Shown one piece after another: positions 6 through 15,784 of a stretch of 15,784 nt of DNA. Below the pieces are notes generated by a model. The model saw nothing but the letters and a program-made list of their open reading frames with translations, made no database searches and had not been told where the DNA came from. Made by a program: the position numbers and the translations under genes. Source of the stretch: Candidatus Thalassarchaeaceae archaeon (GTDB lineage: Archaea; Thermoplasmatota; Poseidoniia; Poseidoniales; Thalassarchaeaceae). Location: positions 1 to 15,784 of the forward strand of contig JASLKH010000029.1 of the NCBI GenBank assembly GCA_030747675.1, written 5' to 3'. Position 1 is the first letter of the stretch. Every line of letters starts with the position of its first letter.

Positions 6-1835
6 TTAATCTTCAACTTCATCGGTTTTTCTGCCATTTTCAATTAATCGAGACGATTTGGATTCACTTGGAAATGAATCCAGGCCAATCTGACCTCTTG
101 GGCGGAGTTGTTCAGCAATTTTCTTTTTGTTGGGACTATTGATTGGTGCGTTTTCCCCTTCTTGTTCAATTACTACTGTGGAGGGAACCTTATCACTTAA
201 TTCGGGGGCCAATCTGATATTTTCTTGTTCTAAGAAATCAGCAGCTTTGTCGCCATTATCTAGCATGAATGAGTCTAGATGTGCTCCTTCTGTCCGAATG
301 GGGCTTCCCCCTCTTTTCCTGCGGACTTGCTGGATTGAACGATGCATAATTTCTTCACGTCTCTTTGCGGAAGCCCGAGCACCTTCATCGCGAGTTTCTC
401 TGGCAATTAAAACGTAAACAGTCCCTTCTCTTTGTCTCCCAGTTCTTCCTCTTCGCTGAATTGTCCTAATCTCACTACCAACTGGCTCGTAAAATATGAC
501 TAAATCAGCATTTGGAACATCTAATCCTTCTTCCCCTACCGAGGTTGCGACTAAGATATTCGCTTTCCCAGCCCTGAATGCATTCAGCCCCTCTAGTTGC
601 TCCTTTTGACTCATACCAGCAGAGCCATCTCTATTGGCTTGCCCAACGAATCTCTGAGGAATAGCCAATTCAATATCTCCAAGAACCCTCTCAATTTCAT
701 CCACAGTATCTCTAAAATTAGCAAAAATGATAATTCTACTATCTGGACTTTCCTTGAGTTGTTTTCTGACCATTCTTCTAACCATTGTTACTTTACTATG
801 GCATTCTTCCATCGAATTAATTGAATCTCTTAATTGTTTAATTCTAGGGTCTTTAACGAATTCTTTAGCTGACGTTTTGATGTCTTCTTTCTTTTCATCA
901 AGGCGATCCAGTGCTTCTCTTGTGGCAGCAACACCTTGGCACAATATGTAAGATATAATATGATTTAATCGCATAGCAATAGCATTCTCTACTGCTGCTC
1001 TATAGGCAATTGACTCTTGTCTTCCGATGGCAATTGATATCCGATTCCGGGCTTCTTGTAATCCTCCTGCTGTGATGTGACCTTGTCGGGAATAGTAGCC
1101 TTGTCGTCTCAACCGATCCACAATTCGTTCTATCCAAACTTCCAACGGTTTTGCTAAATCTCGCAGTACTTGGGGGACTTCTACCACTACATCGTTGATG
1201 TCTAATCCAGATGCATAGGGTTCCAGTAATGCATCACCAGGTGGTCGAGCATGAATATTTGCAATTTTCAATCTATTACAAACTTCCATTATATCTGATT
1301 CAATATGTCCAGGGCTAGCAGTTGCTGCCAATATTATCCCCTCTGGATTTTGTTCTGAGAATAAATCTCCGACTTGAGCCATAGCATGGTTTCCAGTTGC
1401 TCTATGGGCTTCATCAATAATCAGCAAGGCGATATCATTCAGATTTGTTAACCCATTTTGGACATCGTTACGTACAATTTGTGGCGTTGCAACAATAATT
1501 TTCGCTGAACTCCAGATTTTTTCTCGTTTCTTTGGGGAAGTTGATCCTGTAAGACAAACGATGGAATCGGGCCCACTATCTAATTTCAGGAACCGACGTA
1601 AATCAGCAAGATGTTGATTCACAAGTCCATTTGTAGGTGCAACCATAATCGCCCTTCCTCCCTTAATTTTTAGTCGCTCGGCTAATACCATGACTTCAAT
1701 CGGTGTTTTACCCATGCCTGTTGGTAACACCAAAAGCGTTGAACCGCTAAGGCAATGGTCGACTGCTGATAACTGATATGCTCGCGCTTCAAGAGTATTT
1801 GATACGAGCATATCATGGCAGATTTTGTTCGACAT
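6..1835 (-). CDS. hef: Hef/FANCM/Mph1-family SF2 DEAH-box helicase, 609 aa, helicase-only (no ERCC4 nuclease domain in this ORF)
   Basis: N-terminal EARAYQ (Q-motif region), Walker A LPTGMGKT, DEAHRA, motif III ATASPG, ATSVGEEGLDVP and motif VI QRRGRTGR. SD-like GGAG 8 nt before the ATG at 1835; TAA stop at 8..6. Confidence 0.9.
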   Translation of the reverse strand: MSNKICHDMLVSNTLEARAYQLSAVDHCLSGSTLLVLPTGMGKTPIEVMVLAERLKIKGGRAIMVAPTNGLVNQHLADLRRFLKLDSGPDSIVCLTGSTSPKKREKIWSSAKIIVATPQIVRNDVQNGLTNLNDIALLIIDEAHRATGNHAMAQVGDLFSEQNPEGIILAATASPGHIESDIMEVCNRLKIANIHARPPGDALLEPYASGLDINDVVVEVPQVLRDLAKPLEVWIERIVDRLRRQGYYSRQGHITAGGLQEARNRISIAIGRQESIAYRAAVENAIAMRLNHIISYILCQGVAATREALDRLDEKKEDIKTSAKEFVKDPRIKQLRDSINSMEECHSKVTMVRRMVRKQLKESPDSRIIIFANFRDTVDEIERVLGDIELAIPQRFVGQANRDGSAGMSQKEQLEGLNAFRAGKANILVATSVGEEGLDVPNADLVIFYEPVGSEIRTIQRRGRTGRQREGTVYVLIARETRDEGARASAKRREEIMHRSIQQVRRKRGGSPIRTEGAHLDSFMLDNGDKAADFLEQENIRLAPELSDKVPSTVVIEQEGENAPINSPNKKKIAEQLRPRGQIGLDSFPSESKSSRLIENGRKTDEVED

Positions 1836-1880
1836 GTTCTTGACTCCTGCACTCCAAGGTTCTTAGCCAAATCGCTGTAT

Positions 1881-1888
1881 GATATATT
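1881..1888 (-). promoter_or_regulatory. Candidate TATA box for hef
   Basis: Minus strand reads purine-rich CAGAGG followed by AATATATC, about 50 nt upstream of the hef ATG. This would give a ~25-nt UTR containing the GGAG SD. Motif match only. Confidence 0.3.
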
Positions 1889-1900
1889 CCTCTGCATTGC

Positions 1901-1918
1901 AAAACCCCCCGTAGGGGG
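1901..1918 (-). terminator. GC hairpin with C(UACG)G tetraloop followed by U4 (terminator-like, or a 5'-terminal stem-loop)
   Basis: Minus strand reads CCCCC-UACG-GGGGG-UUUU: 5-bp stem, UNCG-class loop. Function is not determinable from sequence. Confidence 0.35.
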
Positions 1919-1939
1919 CCTCGGGCATCAACCGAGCCG

Positions 1940-1949
1940 TTCATATATG
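1940..1949 (+). promoter_or_regulatory. Candidate TATA box for the r-protein operon, overlapping the perfect palindrome CATATATG
   Basis: TTCATATA is one mismatch from TTTATATA and is the best AT-rich box upstream of the structured region. It predicts a TSS near 1970-1975. Confidence 0.4.
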
Positions 1950-1969
1950 GAAGGTAGGTCGGAGGCTCG

Positions 1970-2135
1970 CTCTACACTGGGCATCCAGACACCATCGGGC
2001 AATGTAATTGCATCCCACAAAGCCAAAAATTCCACTTGTGAATTTTGGTCCGGTGTCACGGTTGCCCCTGAAGTGATGAGCCGGCGTACTGCCGCTTCGG
2101 CGGCCTCTACACCGAAAACACATGGAGGACCCAAA
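1970..2135 (+). promoter_or_regulatory. Candidate structured 5' leader (ribosomal-protein leader) of rpl3
   Basis: Serial hairpins CTGG-GCAT-CCAG (1977-1988), GCAAT-GTA-ATTGC (1999-2011) and CCAAAAATTC...GAATTTTGG (2023-2048). Stem CGGTGT/ACACCG (2051-2056/2109-2114) encloses GCCGC-TTCG-GCGGC (2091-2104). SD GGAGGA at 2124-2129. Confidence 0.5.
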
Positions 2136-3152
2136 ATGGGAGACAGACACCGCCCGAAGAAAGGCAGCATGGGCTTCGGCCCTCGAAAGAGAGCAGCACG
2201 GCCGTACGGCCGTGTGAAATCCTGGCCTAATAATGAAGCAGATGAAGTACGAGTTCAGGGATTCGCTGGATGGAAGGCTGGAATGACACATATTTTGATG
2301 CGTGATCTCAATCCTGGCAGCCCTAGTGCAGGTGCTGAAGTGCGAAAAGCAGTCACAGTTGTTGAGGTTCCACCGATGCTTGTTTTAGCAGTTCGTGGTT
2401 ACAAAATGACACCTTACGGTAAGCAAACTGCTGGAGAAGCTTGGGCTGATGCAGAAAAGTTGTCTGACAGCCTCCCCGATTTACCTCGTCGAATCCCTGA
2501 GAGAAAGGAGCATGATTCCGCAGCACATTTGGAAAAGCTGAAAGAATCCAATTTAGTTGAAGTTCGCGTGATAGTTGCTACACAACCAGATAAGATATCT
2601 GCAGTGGGTAGCAAGACACCCGGAATTATGGAAATTGGTTTGACTGGTGGCGATACATCTGCTAAACTGGAATGGGCGGCAGAAAAGTTAGGTGAAGAAC
2701 TAGGAATTGACGATGTATTCACTCCAGGTTCAGATATTGACGTCATTGGAGTGACTAAAGGATATGGTAACCAAGGTGTGGTTCGTCGATTTGGAGTTAA
2801 GTTACTCTCGCACAAGAACTCAAAGCGCCGACGTCAAATTGGTAACATGGGTGATTTTGGTACAGGATACGTTCGAAAGACAATCCGACAAGCCGGACAG
2901 ACAGGATATCACCAGCGCACAGAATATAACAAGCGAATTTTGAGAATCTCAAATGAGGATGATGACCAAATAACACCTGCAGGAGGATTTCTCCATTATG
3001 GTGAATTAAACAATCAATATCTTATGATCCAAGGTAGTTTACCAGGTCCAGCCAAGCGTCTAATTAGATTCCGTGATGCTGCAAGACCTCGCAGTGAACA
3101 ACCATCGGTTGACATAACATACGTAAGTACGGCATCTAAGCAAGGAGTGTGA
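2136..3152 (+). CDS. rpl3: 50S ribosomal protein uL3, 338 aa
   Basis: Start moved from the track's 1815 to ATG 2136 (MGDRHRPKKGSMGFGPRKRA), which has SD GGAGGA. Motifs GFAGWKAGMTH, GVTKGYGNQGVVRRFG, GQTGYHQRTEYNKR, GGFLHYG. Confidence 0.97.
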   Translation: MGDRHRPKKGSMGFGPRKRAARPYGRVKSWPNNEADEVRVQGFAGWKAGMTHILMRDLNPGSPSAGAEVRKAVTVVEVPPMLVLAVRGYKMTPYGKQTAGEAWADAEKLSDSLPDLPRRIPERKEHDSAAHLEKLKESNLVEVRVIVATQPDKISAVGSKTPGIMEIGLTGGDTSAKLEWAAEKLGEELGIDDVFTPGSDIDVIGVTKGYGNQGVVRRFGVKLLSHKNSKRRRQIGNMGDFGTGYVRKTIRQAGQTGYHQRTEYNKRILRISNEDDDQITPAGGFLHYGELNNQYLMIQGSLPGPAKRLIRFRDAARPRSEQPSVDITYVSTASKQGV

Positions 3153-5053: not shown

Positions 5054-5578
5054 ATGGCACGACGTAAGAAGAAAGTAATACGCACACCAAAGGCGGCTCG
5101 TCGAGCAGCTCGTAAGCGCCGTTCAGGTGTAGCAGAACGCCGGAAGAAGGAATTTACCTATCGCGGTTACTCTGTAGCAGAATTGAAAGACCTCCCGGTA
5201 TTTGCACCAGATGAAGACCCGGATGCACTTAGTGTTGAGAGCATCATGCCCTCTCGGGCTCGAAGAAGTATGTCTCGAGGGTACGAAAGAGGAATTACTA
5301 ACGGTGGTTCTAATTCTGATGAGGAACACTTCATCAATCGCATGCGCGAGGATCCTGATAAAAAGGTGAGAACACACTGCCGTTCATTGTATATTCTTCC
5401 AGAAATGGTTGGACGAACGATTGGTATTCATGATGGACGCCAATTCAAAATGGTTGATATTCTCCCCGAAATGATTGGTCATGCGCTTGGAGAATATGCT
5501 CCAACACGTCGCAGTGTGACGCACACAGGACCTGGTGTCGGTGCTACCAGATCGAGTAAGCACGTAGCATTGAAGTGA
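5054..5578 (+). CDS. rps19: 30S ribosomal protein uS19, 174 aa
   Basis: KEFTYRG, VRTHCR, ILPEMVG, PEMIGHALGEYAPTR, HTGPGVGATRSSK. Confidence 0.96.
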   Translation: MARRKKKVIRTPKAARRAARKRRSGVAERRKKEFTYRGYSVAELKDLPVFAPDEDPDALSVESIMPSRARRSMSRGYERGITNGGSNSDEEHFINRMREDPDKKVRTHCRSLYILPEMVGRTIGIHDGRQFKMVDILPEMIGHALGEYAPTRRSVTHTGPGVGATRSSKHVALK

Positions 5579-7072: not shown

Positions 7073-7372
7073 ATGGCGGCGATATGCAATCTTTGTGGTT
7101 TACCCGATGAACTTTGTATATGTCAAGAAATCGCTAAGGAACAACAGAAAGCCGTAATCAGCACAGTAAGAAGGAGGTATGGTAAGATGGTGACAATGAT
7201 TGAAGGTATTGATGATACTGCAATTGATATCAACCAATTGGCCAAGATTCTCAAGGCTTCTTGTGCAAGTGGTGGGACTGTCAAAGGACGAACCATCGAA
7301 CTTCAAGGTGAACACAAGAAACGCGCGGCTATGATTTTACAAAAGAATGGATACGAAGTGGAGGTGCGCTGA
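7073..7372 (+). CDS. sui1: Translation initiation factor aIF1 (SUI1 family), with N-terminal Cys knuckle, 99 aa
   Basis: CNLCGLPDELCIC, RRRYGKMVT, LKASCASGGTVK, IELQGEH; conserved position after rpl29. Confidence 0.95.
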   Translation: MAAICNLCGLPDELCICQEIAKEQQKAVISTVRRRYGKMVTMIEGIDDTAIDINQLAKILKASCASGGTVKGRTIELQGEHKKRAAMILQKNGYEVEVR

Positions 7373-7633
7373 ATGACAGATAGTATTCACATGCCATTCC
7401 TTGCCCGTACACTGCACGTATGTGATTCAACAGATCGAACTTTATTGGGTCTTTCAGGAACTGTGGTTAACGAAAGCCGTCACATGATTGCCCTTGACGT
7501 GGGGGGCCAGACAAAGAATCTGGCAAAGAACGTTATCAAATTCACCCTCGATGATGAGGATGATCAAATTGAGGGCGCTATGGTGTGTCAGCGCCCCGAA
7601 GACCGAATCCACCGAAATTATAGGAGGAACTGA
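7373..7633 (+). CDS. rnp1: Ribonuclease P protein component 1 (Rpp29/Pop4), 86 aa
   Basis: GLSGTVVNESR, K...F, and C-terminal RPEDR pattern; canonical position between sui1 and rps17. Confidence 0.85.
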   Translation: MTDSIHMPFLARTLHVCDSTDRTLLGLSGTVVNESRHMIALDVGGQTKNLAKNVIKFTLDDEDDQIEGAMVCQRPEDRIHRNYRRN

Positions 7634-8372: not shown

Positions 8373-8795
8373 ATGGTCAGTAAATCCCCTAATAAGCAGA
8401 GAAAGTCTGCAGCAAAAGCTCCTCTTCATCAAAGAAGAAAGCGTATACGTGCACGTTGTTTAGATCCGAATTATGCAAGTGTTCGATCAGTTACGATTCG
8501 TGTTGGCGATGAAGTTGAAGTCCGTCGTGGCGACTTCGGGCATCCAAATTCACTGAAAGGCGAGAAAGGTAAGCGACATGGAGAGGCCCGCGGTAAGTCT
8601 GGAGCTCGTGCAAGAGTTGCTGGTGTAGATACCACAAGTGGGCGTATTTATGTCGAAGGAATTACACACTCAAAGGCTGATGGAAAGGAGGAAGGAATCC
8701 CAATCCATCCTTCAAATGTAGCAGTAGTGAAAATTGATGATAGCGACCCTATACGATTGAAGGATCTTCAATCAAGAAACGGAGGCGATGAATAA
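8373..8795 (+). CDS. rpl24: 50S ribosomal protein uL24, 140 aa
   Basis: Start reassigned to ATG 8373 (SD GAGGTGA at 8361-8367). PNKQRK, APLHQRRK, IRVGDEVEVRRGD, IPIHPSNV. Confidence 0.95.
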   Translation: MVSKSPNKQRKSAAKAPLHQRRKRIRARCLDPNYASVRSVTIRVGDEVEVRRGDFGHPNSLKGEKGKRHGEARGKSGARARVAGVDTTSGRIYVEGITHSKADGKEEGIPIHPSNVAVVKIDDSDPIRLKDLQSRNGGDE

Positions 8796-11142: not shown

Positions 11143-11781
11143 ATGAGTGAGTATTCAGGTATGACAGTCGCTGAGTTGAAAGAAATTCTCAAGGAGAAGG
11201 GATTACCATTGTCTGGTAAGAAGGCAGATCTAATTTCTCGCCTCGAAGAAGCTGCAGACGAATCTGATGATATTGAAGACGAAGTTGTGGAAGAACTCGA
11301 TGAAGACGATGATTTCGATGATTTCGATGATGAAGATGAAGATTGGGATGATGAGGAATACGTACATACTGCTAAACAAAAGCCAGAATTAGATGATGAA
11401 ACAAAGGCTGCTTTGGATGCGCGCAAGGCGCAGAATAAGGTGCAACCTAAATTCCGTCGGCAAGAATGGTACCGTTACAAGCGTCTATCTCGAACTGGTT
11501 GGAAGAGACCTCGTGGAGATGACTCCAGCCAGCGTAAAAATCGAAAGTATCGAAGCCCGTTAGTTAGAGTAGGTTATGGTAAGATTGCTGCGGTTAGGAA
11601 TTTACATCCATCAGGATTCAAAGAAGTACTTGTTCATCGACCAGAAGATTTGGACGACATCGATCCTGCTGTAGAAGCGGCGCGAATTGGTGGAACTGTT
11701 GGAGGAAGAAAGCGCGTTCATATCCATGAACGAGCAGATGAATTGGGCATCCGTGTCTTGAATCGAAGGAGGGGTCTCTGA
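11143..11781 (+). CDS. rpl32e: 50S ribosomal protein eL32 with N-terminal SAP-like domain and acidic linker, 212 aa
   Basis: C-terminal PKFRRQEW, WKRPRG, VGYG, HPSGFKEVLVH, IGGTVGGRKR, GIRVLN. N-terminal MTVAELKEILKEKGLPLSGKKADLISRL matches the SAP consensus. Confidence 0.95.
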   Translation: MSEYSGMTVAELKEILKEKGLPLSGKKADLISRLEEAADESDDIEDEVVEELDEDDDFDDFDDEDEDWDDEEYVHTAKQKPELDDETKAALDARKAQNKVQPKFRRQEWYRYKRLSRTGWKRPRGDDSSQRKNRKYRSPLVRVGYGKIAAVRNLHPSGFKEVLVHRPEDLDDIDPAVEAARIGGTVGGRKRVHIHERADELGIRVLNRRRGL

Positions 11782-14005: not shown

Positions 14006-14015
14006 GGTGAAATGT

Positions 14016-14423
14016 ATGGTATCTCGTACGAATAAATTCCGTGGACGCTCACGCTACCATGGACGTGGAAAGAAAGCTGGACGTGGAGCAGGAATGCGTG
14101 GAGGACGTGGTAATGCTGGTTTGAACAAGCATCGAACCATGACTCGAATCAAGTATATGCCGAAGCATTATGGTATGTATGGATTCAACCGTGATCCTAG
14201 TTTGAGGACTGCTTACAATACTTGCAATGTCAGTGAACTTTCAGGATTGATAGATAAAGGCGACAGCGTCGACTTGGCAGAACATGGAATTGAGAAGCTC
14301 TTGGGTTCAGGACAAATTTCCCAAGCCATTCATGTCACAGTCGAACACGCTTCTGCTCGTGCTGTAGAAAAGGTCGAAGCAGCAGGCGGATCAGTCACTT
14401 TAGATGACGGTGAAGAAGAGTAA
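14016..14423 (+). CDS. rpl15: 50S ribosomal protein uL15, 135 aa
   Basis: Start at ATG 14016 (SD GAGGTGA at 14004-14010). RGSRYHG-like RGRSRYHGRG, RGGRGNAG, KLLGSG, AVEKVEAAGG. Confidence 0.95.
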   Translation: MVSRTNKFRGRSRYHGRGKKAGRGAGMRGGRGNAGLNKHRTMTRIKYMPKHYGMYGFNRDPSLRTAYNTCNVSELSGLIDKGDSVDLAEHGIEKLLGSGQISQAIHVTVEHASARAVEKVEAAGGSVTLDDGEEE

Positions 14424-14459
14424 TTTAATCAGATTTAATTGGTAAATGGGTGAATTTAG

Positions 14460-15784
14460 ATGAATCGACGACCGAATGTTCTCGGAATTGCGATTATATC
14501 TGCCATTTATTGGGGTGCTTTGTTTTACTGGCAATGGGATGCTTTGTTTAGCGGTGACGAAGAAGTTGCCAACAATGCTTTGATTGCGGTGGCAACATCA
14601 ATTCCGTATGTAGCATTCGTCATTTGGGGAACATCAACAGATCTTCCTGACAATGTTAAGGATATGAAATATATTGGTCGTGGACTAAAACCTGTTGTCT
14701 GGGTTTCTGTTATGATCGGCCTTGGAATTTGGGGTTGGATTGATCATGAAATGGTTGGTTTCCTCTTGGTTGGTATTGGACTAATGGGGGTCATGGCAGG
14801 TCTTTGTTTGACTTGCTTGCTTTATACAGGCGATGAAAGTAGTCGCCTCTATGCACTAAAGCGCTTAGTCGATGTCTATCCATCTATTACAAAACCAGAA
14901 GGGCACGTCAGATTCAACTCAAAGTTGTGGACAACAACCTTCGTTCTAATCATTTATTTCGCCATGACAAATGTCATGATTTGGGGACTTTCAGAAGCTA
15001 CCATCGATATTTTCAGCAGCTTCAGAGCCATTATGGCTGGCGCCTCAGGTTCAATTATGCACCTTGGAATTGGACCAATTGTTACAGGTTCAATTATCAT
15101 GCAACTGTTCGCTGGTGCCAAAATTATCAAACTTGATTTGGGTGACAGCGATGATAAACAATTGTACCAAGGTATTCAGAAGATCTTGGTTATGATTATG
15201 ATTCCGGTTGAATCAATCCCTCAAGTGTACGGGTTCCTTGATGCAAGTCCCGAGTTAGTAGGTCAATTTGGTCAAGGTTGGGCGAATGCAATCATTGTCA
15301 GTCAATTGTTTATTGGCTCGTTACTCGTGTTCTTATTGGACGAATTAGTTAGCAAGTGGGGCATTGGTTCGGGTATCTCACTTTTCATTGCTGCAGGTGT
15401 CGCACAATCGACATTCGTAGGTACATTATCGCCATTGGCAGTGAGTTCCGGTGCCTATAGCGTGCAAAATCCGCCTGCAGGGACCTTACCCATGATTTTC
15501 TACACTTTACGGACAGCGACGTTCTCAGAGATGGTTTCTGCCAATGGTTTCGAATCAATACTACTGGGCGACGCCGTTCACCCCAATGCAGTGGTAGCTC
15601 TATTCTCAAGCGTAATTGTATTCCTAGTTGTGGCGTATGCTGAAAGTTCCAAATTGGAATTGCCATTGACGCATGGAAAGGTTCGCGGTCATCGCGGCCA
15701 ATATCCAATTAGGTTGGTTTATGCAAGTAACATTCCAGTGATTCTAATGGCTGCTTTATTGGCAAACTTGAACATGTTTACTTT
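14460..15784 (+). CDS. secY: Protein translocase subunit SecY (Sec61 alpha), 3'-partial, with a ~124-aa hydrophobic N-terminal extension
   Basis: Hand-translated with no stop from ATG 14460 (SD GGGTGA at 14448-14453) to the window end. SecY motifs: PSITKPEGHV, MAGASGSIMHLGIGPIVTGSIIMQL, LDELVSKWGIGSGISLFIAAGV, YPIRLVYASNIPVIL. Absent from the ORF track because it has no stop in the window. Confidence 0.95.
   Translation, partial: MNRRPNVLGIAIISAIYWGALFYWQWDALFSGDEEVANNALIAVATSIPYVAFVIWGTSTDLPDNVKDMKYIGRGLKPVVWVSVMIGLGIWGWIDHEMVGFLLVGIGLMGVMAGLCLTCLLYTGDESSRLYALKRLVDVYPSITKPEGHVRFNSKLWTTTFVLIIYFAMTNVMIWGLSEATIDIFSSFRAIMAGASGSIMHLGIGPIVTGSIIMQLFAGAKIIKLDLGDSDDKQLYQGIQKILVMIMIPVESIPQVYGFLDASPELVGQFGQGWANAIIVSQLFIGSLLVFLLDELVSKWGIGSGISLFIAAGVAQSTFVGTLSPLAVSSGAYSVQNPPAGTLPMIFYTLRTATFSEMVSANGFESILLGDAVHPNAVVALFSSVIVFLVVAYAESSKLELPLTHGKVRGHRGQYPIRLVYASNIPVILMAALLANLNMFT

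Follow-up and report, generated by a model that had tools for sequence, protein, structure and literature searches.

A four-helix N-terminal extension gives the SecY of Poseidoniales archaea a predicted 14-helix architecture

SecY/Sec61alpha, the core of the protein translocon, is regarded as universally a channel of 10 transmembrane (TM) helices, accessory helices normally being supplied by separate subunits. Here we describe the secY gene of a Candidatus Thalassarchaeaceae archaeon, a member of the Poseidoniales (Marine Group II, MGII), in which some 125 residues with four hydrophobic helices precede the SecY homology, itself beginning at about amino acid (aa) 129–132. The gene lies at the end of a stretch of 15,784 nucleotides – hereafter the window – which is a whole contig (15.8 kb) of a 1.68-Mb metagenome-assembled genome (MAG) that is 78% complete. 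The best explanation overall, and one that we consider reasonably likely, is that this is the sole, housekeeping SecY of these organisms, a 14-helix protein whose N-terminal bundle arose from a two-helix hairpin and would serve as a peripheral brace or anchor. We hold the two parts of this explanation with different confidence: the anatomy and the evolutionary reading with high confidence; the functional reading – that the bundle braces or anchors TM1 and the complex from within SecY itself, its basic loop 2 possibly serving for docking – only tentatively.

The secY open reading frame (ORF) is the last of the contig, on the plus strand (14460–15782; 441 codons), and stays open from ATG 14460 until the contig end. 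An in-frame TAG (14457–14459) stands immediately 5' of the ATG, so that stop and start codon adjoin (14457–14462, plus strand), and a Shine–Dalgarno-like GGTGA lies 6 nt before the start codon (14449–14453, plus strand). The initial annotation had read the frame as open from this ATG, with its Shine–Dalgarno motif, and as having no in-frame ATG where a canonical SecY would begin; both statements hold, Met residues occurring at positions 1, 69, 85, 98, 109 and 112 of the window protein and, after M112, not again before M169. Among relatives, an in-frame stop occurs no more than 15 codons upstream of the aligned start of the extension, and a motif of the GGAGG or GGTGA type precedes the equivalent start by 5–10 nt in 57 of the 71 distinct upstream regions from Poseidoniales.

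The four hydrophobic stretches proposed earlier are borne out by hydropathy (Kyte–Doolittle segments at aa 6–24, 37–58, 76–94 and 99–117) and by the helices of an AlphaFold model (aa 7–29, 34–59, 70–94 and 96–121). All features of the extension lie on the plus strand. Helix 1 (aa 7–29; 14478–14546), recognised from the model (AlphaFold2, predicted local distance difference test (pLDDT) above 90), from hydropathy and from hhalign comparisons, follows a basic N-terminus (M-N-R-R-P), contains the invariant residues Y17 and W24 and ends in the aromatic motif YWQWD. Helix 2 (aa 34–59; 14559–14636) and helix 3 (aa 76–94; 14685–14741; W91 invariant), both recognised from the model and from hydropathy, are the two halves of a hairpin specific to the Poseidoniales, helix 2 being without counterpart in the two-helix forms described below. 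The predicted cytoplasmic loop 2 between them (aa 60–75, continuing to K77; 14637–14684), delimited by its charges and conservation, is basic and carries the motif D-L-P ... I-G-R-x-x-K, with K77 invariant and D61, P63 and G73 nearly so. Helix 4 (aa 96–121; 14745–14822), supported by the model, by hhalign and by conservation, is glycine-rich (V-G-F-L-L-V-G-x-x-L-x-G), and its residues G100, V104, G105, L108, G110 and C119 are invariant. It leads into the junction Y-T-G-D-E-S-S (aa 122–128; 14823–14843), whose counterparts in alignments are S-Y-x-G-E/D-G-S in two-helix forms and the first residues, M-x-E-E-K-K-S, of unextended SecYs. Counts of basic (K+R) and acidic (D+E) residues are 2/0 for the N-terminus, 0/4 for loop 1, 4/3 for loop 2 (with K67, K70, R74 and K77 as the basic residues) and 0/2 for loop 3, matching the positive-inside pattern that had been claimed, and the even number of added helices preserves the orientation of SecY, as had also been proposed.

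What follows the junction is a canonical SecY core. Its N-terminal part, identified through Pfam, PDB (phmmer), NCBIfam and Foldseek searches, occupies 14844–15782 on the plus strand and comprises the amphipathic helix (aa 129–139), TM1 (aa 152–170), the plug (aa 164–197) and the helices up to about TM7, after which the contig ends; full-length relatives measure 639–648 aa, and a 641-aa relative that is 92% identical to the window protein was used as a full-length stand-in. In the window protein, Pfam finds SecY (PF00344) at aa 198–435 with 136.6 bits (cut-off 32.2) and Plug (TM2a; PF10559) at aa 164–197 with 42.3 bits, and no family at E ≤ 1 within aa 1–124; nor does NCBIfam have a match for this domain. 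In the stand-in, residue 7 of Pyrococcus furiosus SecY (3mp7; PDB phmmer E = 6e-85) aligns to aa 130, and the archaeal SecY equivalog NF006341 covers aa 132–639 with 335 bits (cut-off 300; profile positions 6–463 of 464). The earlier estimate that SecY homology sets in after about 124 codons therefore stands.

The predicted structure agrees with this division. A first AlphaFold2 run on 32 close sequences left the core unfolded (pLDDT 51) and was replaced by one with a 142-sequence alignment of the full-length relative, which reached a mean pLDDT of 83.3 and a predicted template modelling score of 0.82. Confidence is highest in the extension (pLDDT 87–97), to which a 7-residue linker joins the amphipathic helix at aa 129–139 and then TM1 at aa 152–170. 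On the solved channels 7tm3, 1rh5, 1rhz and 8dny, the model superposes with Foldseek template modelling scores of 0.82–0.89 (normalised by target), and the representative (642 aa) of an ESM Atlas cluster with 70 members from Thermoplasmatota superposes, with a score of 0.86, over residues 1–635; both predictors thus place the bundle alike. Predicted-complex scoring of the extension (aa 1–125) against the core (aa 126–641) gave 0.28 and 0.14 (mark 0.32), which is evidence neither way.

Compared with canonical SecY/Sec61alpha (1RHZ/1RH5, 3MP7 and mammalian Sec61 such as 7TM3), the core from aa ~129 shares 30–37% identity, and as in other archaea the gene is a single copy that follows uL15 in the operon and encodes an amphipathic helix and then TM1. 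It differs in its ~125 additional N-terminal residues, in having 14 helices rather than 10 and in the position of the amphipathic helix, which is internal here and forms the free N-terminus in canonical SecYs. A SecY is expected to start with this cytoplasmic amphipathic helix and to have 10 TM helices, whereas four helices (aa 7–121) come before it in the window protein; this is a variant architecture and no ground for excluding the protein from the SecY family. A further difference from solved archaeal SecYs, the greater length of external loops 5 and 7, is a phylum-wide feature of the Thermoplasmatota: the cores sampled (~515 aa) have longer external TM5/TM6 and TM7/TM8 loops (e.g. aa 324–376 and 447–510 of L002:901-2823:-), in which AlphaFold2 predicts small helical or beta elements.

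The extension is conserved across the Poseidoniales. Of 41 close relatives, 33 have a match that spans it within a single open frame of about 640–650 aa, the misses being incomplete assemblies. A profile of the extension built from 17 sequences (A1) gave a single match per genome in 40/40 f1 and 63/65 f3 genomes, f1 and f3 being the two main Poseidoniales families, and the match always lay within a SecY frame of about 640–660 aa unless this was cut by a contig end; both f2 genomes also carry the extension. More than 100 genomes share this extension, its start position and its frame, joined with SecY in one frame of about 640 aa, and the window's own genome has a single SecY match, as does each relative. 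Fourteen columns of the extension, among them Y17, W24, K77, W91, G100, V104, G105, L108, G110 and C119, are invariant across three families. Over 36 pairs, the extension has a median ratio of nonsynonymous to synonymous substitution rates (dN/dS) of about 0.09, against about 0.026 in the core; at unsaturated synonymous sites the values are about 0.08–0.12 and 0.015–0.03, respectively. Given the conserved frame, the stop and Shine–Dalgarno motif at its head, the low dN/dS and the invariant columns, the extension appears, as far as sequence can tell, to be a real, translated part of SecY, and two separate genes, a mis-called start or an assembly artefact can be excluded for practical purposes.

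Marine Group III (MGIII), the sister group of the Poseidoniales in the same class, has a smaller extension. The A1 profile matched none of the 43 f4 and 2 f5 genomes, which represent the other two families of the class, and at E ≤ 0.001 it does not detect the MGIII forms; the SecY frames of these families, about 570 aa long, begin with a 55–60-aa extension of two hydrophobic helices, here called A and B, and the ~515-aa core aligns end to end across the phylum. The two-helix extension is present in many families (f17, f20, f29, f33, f35 and others), and named records that carry it include Thermoplasmata and Thermoplasmatales MAGs, DHVE2/Aciduliprofundum and Ca. Lutacidiplasma. Unextended SecYs, such as those of Methanomassiliicoccales, Methanomethylophilaceae, Ca. 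Sysuiplasma and others, have M-x-E-E-K-K-S-x-L-Y as their very first residues. In the two-helix forms, an invariant Arg near the N-terminus (R6) precedes helix A, helix A ends in an aromatic W-x-W-x-D/P motif, and helix B ends in S/T-Y-x-G-D/E directly before S-K-L-Y-G-L.

These forms share with the Poseidoniales SecY its basic N-terminus, its helix end motifs, its topology with both ends of the extension inside (N-in/C-in) and its junction with SecY; what sets the Poseidoniales apart is two more helices and a conserved cytoplasmic loop between A and B. Put in terms of the traits of a 12-helix SecY, helices A and B with their end motifs, directly fused to SecY, are found in the window protein, while its four added helices depart from the pattern of exactly two joined by a short external loop. 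Profile comparison with hhalign identifies the counterparts: helix A scores 17.1 against helix 1 of MGII (P = 2e-4), and helix B scores 17.1 against helix 4 (P = 3e-4), both above the maxima (11.7 for A, 12.4 for B) of a background of 38 SecY-core windows with means of 7–8. The homology of helix 1 with A and of helix 4 with B is thus supported at the level of sequence profiles, and helices 2 and 3 would accordingly be an addition within the external A–B loop.

We therefore picture the bundle as having its ancestor in the A–B hairpin now seen in MGIII, DHVE2/Aciduliprofundum, Thermoplasmatales-type and several other Thermoplasmatota, with a second hairpin – helices 2 and 3 and their conserved basic cytoplasmic loop – added inside the external A–B loop in an ancestor of the Poseidoniales; as two helices, an even number, would have been added, the topology was kept. 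The four-helix SecYs form one clade, with support of 100, in a FastTree phylogeny of SecY. On these comparisons, the bundle is an enlarged older extension and not a captured foreign gene. Of the initial description of a SecY fused to an unknown module, what stands is that a single polypeptide is involved and that the extension belongs to no described family; it is, however, an elaboration of a two-helix extension widespread in Thermoplasmatota rather than a separate module, and to speak of a new system overstates what is a lineage-specific variant of a known machine. In DHVE2/Aciduliprofundum-type SecYs (L076, L077, L085, L087, L128-L133), the external A–B loop is some 14–16 residues longer and includes an amphipathic-looking segment. 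That some two-helix lineages (DHVE2 and others) have a longer loop indicates that it tolerates insertions, and the DHVE2-type loop may be an intermediate between the 12- and 14-helix forms.

The second hairpin need not have been unrelated to the first. It could have arisen by tandem duplication of the ancestral hairpin (A-B-A'-B'), a route that we consider possible but rather unlikely. In its favour, a two-helix profile aligns over its full length both on helices 1–2 (score 21.1) and on helices 3–4 (25.0), where the background reaches at most 13.9; helix 3 has I-G-R before it and W-G-W-x-D at its end, resembling the I-P-R ... W-x-W-K-D of helix A; and MAFFT places the two-helix forms on helices 3–4. 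Helix by helix, however, the matches that a duplication calls for – A with helix 3 (9.9, P = 0.037), B with helix 2 (11.0, P = 0.016) and helix 1 with helix 3 (14.6, P = 0.002) – fall within the SecY-core background (maxima 11.7, 12.4 and, for helix 1, 16.3), and each of the half-scores is carried by one strongly matching helix.

Whichever way the bundle arose, translation from ATG 14460 would yield a four-helix bundle with both ends inside and, joined to it by the 7-residue linker, the amphipathic helix with the 10-helix channel, 14 helices in all. Because the short linker ties helix 4 to the amphipathic helix before TM1, the bundle is expected at the lipid-exposed periphery of the N-terminal half of SecY, presumably beside TM1 and the Sec61beta/SecE side and outside the pore. 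From there it could, as an integral part of SecY, anchor TM1 and the trimeric complex in the membrane or brace them, and its conserved cytoplasmic loop might offer a docking surface. Within the core, extended and unextended SecYs are told apart best by aa 127, 129 and 132, which lie in the amphipathic helix, and by T159 of TM1, which is Thr in 93 of 97 extended sequences and mostly Val in unextended ones.

Contacts in fungi at the corresponding site offer a loose comparison. In yeast Sec61p, the amphipathic helix at the N-terminus anchors the first transmembrane domain (TMD1), lies near Sbh1 and is needed for the stability of the complex, and TMD3 of fungal Sec63 binds the TMD1/Sbh1/Sss1 region of Sec61, priming the gate (PMC6481919). 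The likeness would lie in the expected site, beside TM1 and the amphipathic helix and near the beta subunit, and in a plausible effect on complex stability or on the tilt of TM1. There is no relation in sequence or fold, and the fungal contacts are made by separate proteins, whereas the helices here are SecY's own.

A stronger functional proposal is that the N-terminal helices of Thermoplasmatota – mostly two, four in the Poseidoniales – constitute a functional, built-in translocon accessory that alters gating or the range of clients, either because they would brace TM1, along with the amphipathic helix, from the back or side or because they would recruit a partner via the cytoplasmic loop. 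We regard this as unlikely; if true, it would make for a structurally distinct 12- or 14-helix Sec channel that itself takes on, in cis, the part which distinct proteins (Sec63 or TRAM, for instance) play in eukaryotes.

The hairpin might also serve mainly for docking rather than bracing, by presenting its basic D-L-P ... I-G-R-x-x-K loop to the ribosome, FtsY or another partner. The conservation of loop 2 – K77 throughout, with D61, P63 and G73 nearly so – is in keeping with such a role, as is the invariant R6 that precedes helix A in all two-helix forms. The positive-inside rule alone, however, predicts positively charged cytoplasmic loops, and we rate docking as the main function improbable.

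Several points weigh against the preferred account of a 14-helix SecY with a bracing bundle derived from a two-helix hairpin. The long form is deduced from sequence, and internal TTG codons (aa 117 and 120) may give rise to an additional short isoform. The order of events, from 10 through 12 to 14 helices, is drawn from taxonomy and helix homology and not from a resolved tree: the SecY-only tree is poorly resolved, requires about six gains or losses of the extension and sets some unextended long-branch sequences, rather than MGIII, beside the four-helix clade, with long-branch attraction flagged. Where the bundle sits beside the channel is likewise a prediction, drawn from the short linker, and the contrast in core columns, which hints at that position, is confounded by phylogeny. 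Finally, searches with the predicted fold yield generic helical-bundle matches only and so provide no functional lead.

It is very unlikely that the bundle, covalently attached, takes the place of a small subunit (Sec61beta/SecG or SecE) that was lost. Its expected place near TM1 does overlap the Sec61beta region, and matches of Sec61beta ORFs to PF03911 in the Poseidoniales and MGIII are weak (18–30 bits, many below the cut-off, against 40–66 bits in other Thermoplasmatota; e.g. G034:C23:1040-1138 and G026:C1:48992-49090), with none detected in the window's own, 78%-complete genome. However, Sec61beta ORFs of about 73 aa are found in 13/13 f3 and 4/8 f1 genomes and throughout the phylum, two-helix lineages included; SecE-like ORFs are found in all five genomes tested, that of the window among them (G000:C14:18450-18572; 19.7 bits, below the cut-off); and the extension, in the window domain and 17 relatives, has no Pfam similarity to Sec61_beta (PF03911), SecE (PF00584) or SecG. 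With Sec61beta- and SecE-like ORFs present separately, the extension is no stand-in for a lost small subunit. Bacteria offer a looser parallel, Escherichia coli SecE having three TM helices, of which one is essential, and SecG two: there, too, lineage-specific, peripheral and probably non-catalytic helices have been added to a conserved translocon core, but on other subunits and without relation in sequence.

The earlier suggestion that aa 1–124 might have stand-alone homologues found no support in any library searched. All homologues of the extension longer than 222 aa carry SecY domains, and the shorter ones represent pieces of the fused gene, cut off by a contig end or broken by a frameshift (10 length-matched matches checked). 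The extension profile, run against 1.84 billion cluster representatives, gave 58 matches and no distinct stand-alone family: 57 are short fragments of the fused gene, and one is a repetitive 552-aa protein with nine matching stretches, which we take to be spurious. An ESM Atlas feature search with aa 1–125 returned no usable match, and a wide structure search with VIA-align, for which the first AlphaFold2 model was used with its low-confidence core trimmed, only generic helical bundles, the best N-domain Z-scores of 6.6–7.4 (SLC4 transporters, designed bundles) lying in the non-specific range. Public database records label these proteins merely SecY or hypothetical. A full-text literature search, with subscription-only papers outside its scope, found no account of a SecY extended at its N-terminus by a membrane segment, be it in MGII, in Thermoplasma or in archaea at large, and no paper on the two-helix extension of Thermoplasmatota.

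These results bear directly on the idea that a separate accessory membrane-protein gene was fused to secY through loss of a stop/start overlap, leaving a 'scar' at the junction. Such a scar might be seen in the 10-mer AGGCGATGAA, which occurs twice in the window (0.04 expected), at the junction of uL24 and eS4 (8783–8792) and at that of extension and SecY (14828–14837). A fusion of this kind nevertheless seems highly improbable: beyond the fragmentary nature of the short database matches, helices 1 and 4 are homologous to a two-helix extension already present in the SecY of other classes, and no genome was found in which a separate gene upstream of a 10-helix secY encodes a four- or two-helix protein. 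The junction motif, G-E/D-x-S-K/R-L-Y, is moreover common to unextended SecY N-termini across the phylum, and most relatives have Glu and not Asp there, so that the 10-mer is not conserved; for these two reasons we read the AGGCGATGAA repeat as probably a coincidence. That the extension is untranslated – SecY starting internally near aa 112–125, where the canonical start lacks an ATG but TTG codons stand at aa 117 and 120, with the upstream frame a fortuitous intergenic read-through – is refuted for practical purposes by its protein-level conservation with invariant residues across three families, its dN/dS of about 0.09 with synonymous sites saturated, the stop and Shine–Dalgarno motif at its head in most relatives and the confidence with which AlphaFold2 folds it.

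The remainder of the window comprises, on the minus strand, a gene for a DEAD-box helicase and, after it, an archaeal ribosomal-protein cluster of standard make-up on the plus strand. The latter, confirmed with Pfam, runs uL3, uL4, uL23, uL2, uS19, uL22, uS3, uL29, SUI1, RNase P p29, uS17, uL14, uL24, eS4, uL5, uS8, uL6, eL32, eL19, uL18, uS5, uL30 and uL15. The uL15 gene (Ribosomal_L27A family; 14007–14423, plus strand; ORF list and PF00828, 58 bits) lies directly upstream of secY, whose place after uL30 and uL15 is the canonical one in the archaeal (spc-like) cluster. The SUI1 and RNase P p29 genes (7073–7633, plus strand) sit inside the cluster between uL29 and uS17, as is usual for archaea. 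The eL32 ORF (11143–11781, plus strand; 212 aa) encodes an N-terminal SAP domain (PF02037, 62 bits, aa 4–37) before its L32e domain (aa 102–207), an unusual fusion for a ribosomal protein. The longest ORFs of uL3 (1815–3152, plus strand; 445 aa, L3 domain from aa 112) and uS19 (5054–5578, plus strand; 174 aa, S19 domain aa 94–157) have some 90–110 residues before their Pfam domains, which are either N-terminal extensions or the result of starts called too early; the start of the uL3 ORF overlaps the divergent helicase ORF.

For annotation, the long start of secY is the correct one in these genomes, and the N-terminal ~125 aa merit a family model of their own. For the biology of the group, the finding means a sole SecY of 14 helices in the Poseidoniales, which count among the most abundant of surface-ocean archaea, and a SecY of 12 helices in many other Thermoplasmatota. 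The 12-helix lineages presumably include cultured Aciduliprofundum and Ferroplasma-type organisms, and the 12-helix form could be studied in such cultures. Together, SecYs with 10, 12 and 14 helices make up a natural series in which to ask how peripheral helices at TM1 affect channel stability, gating and the recruitment of partners.

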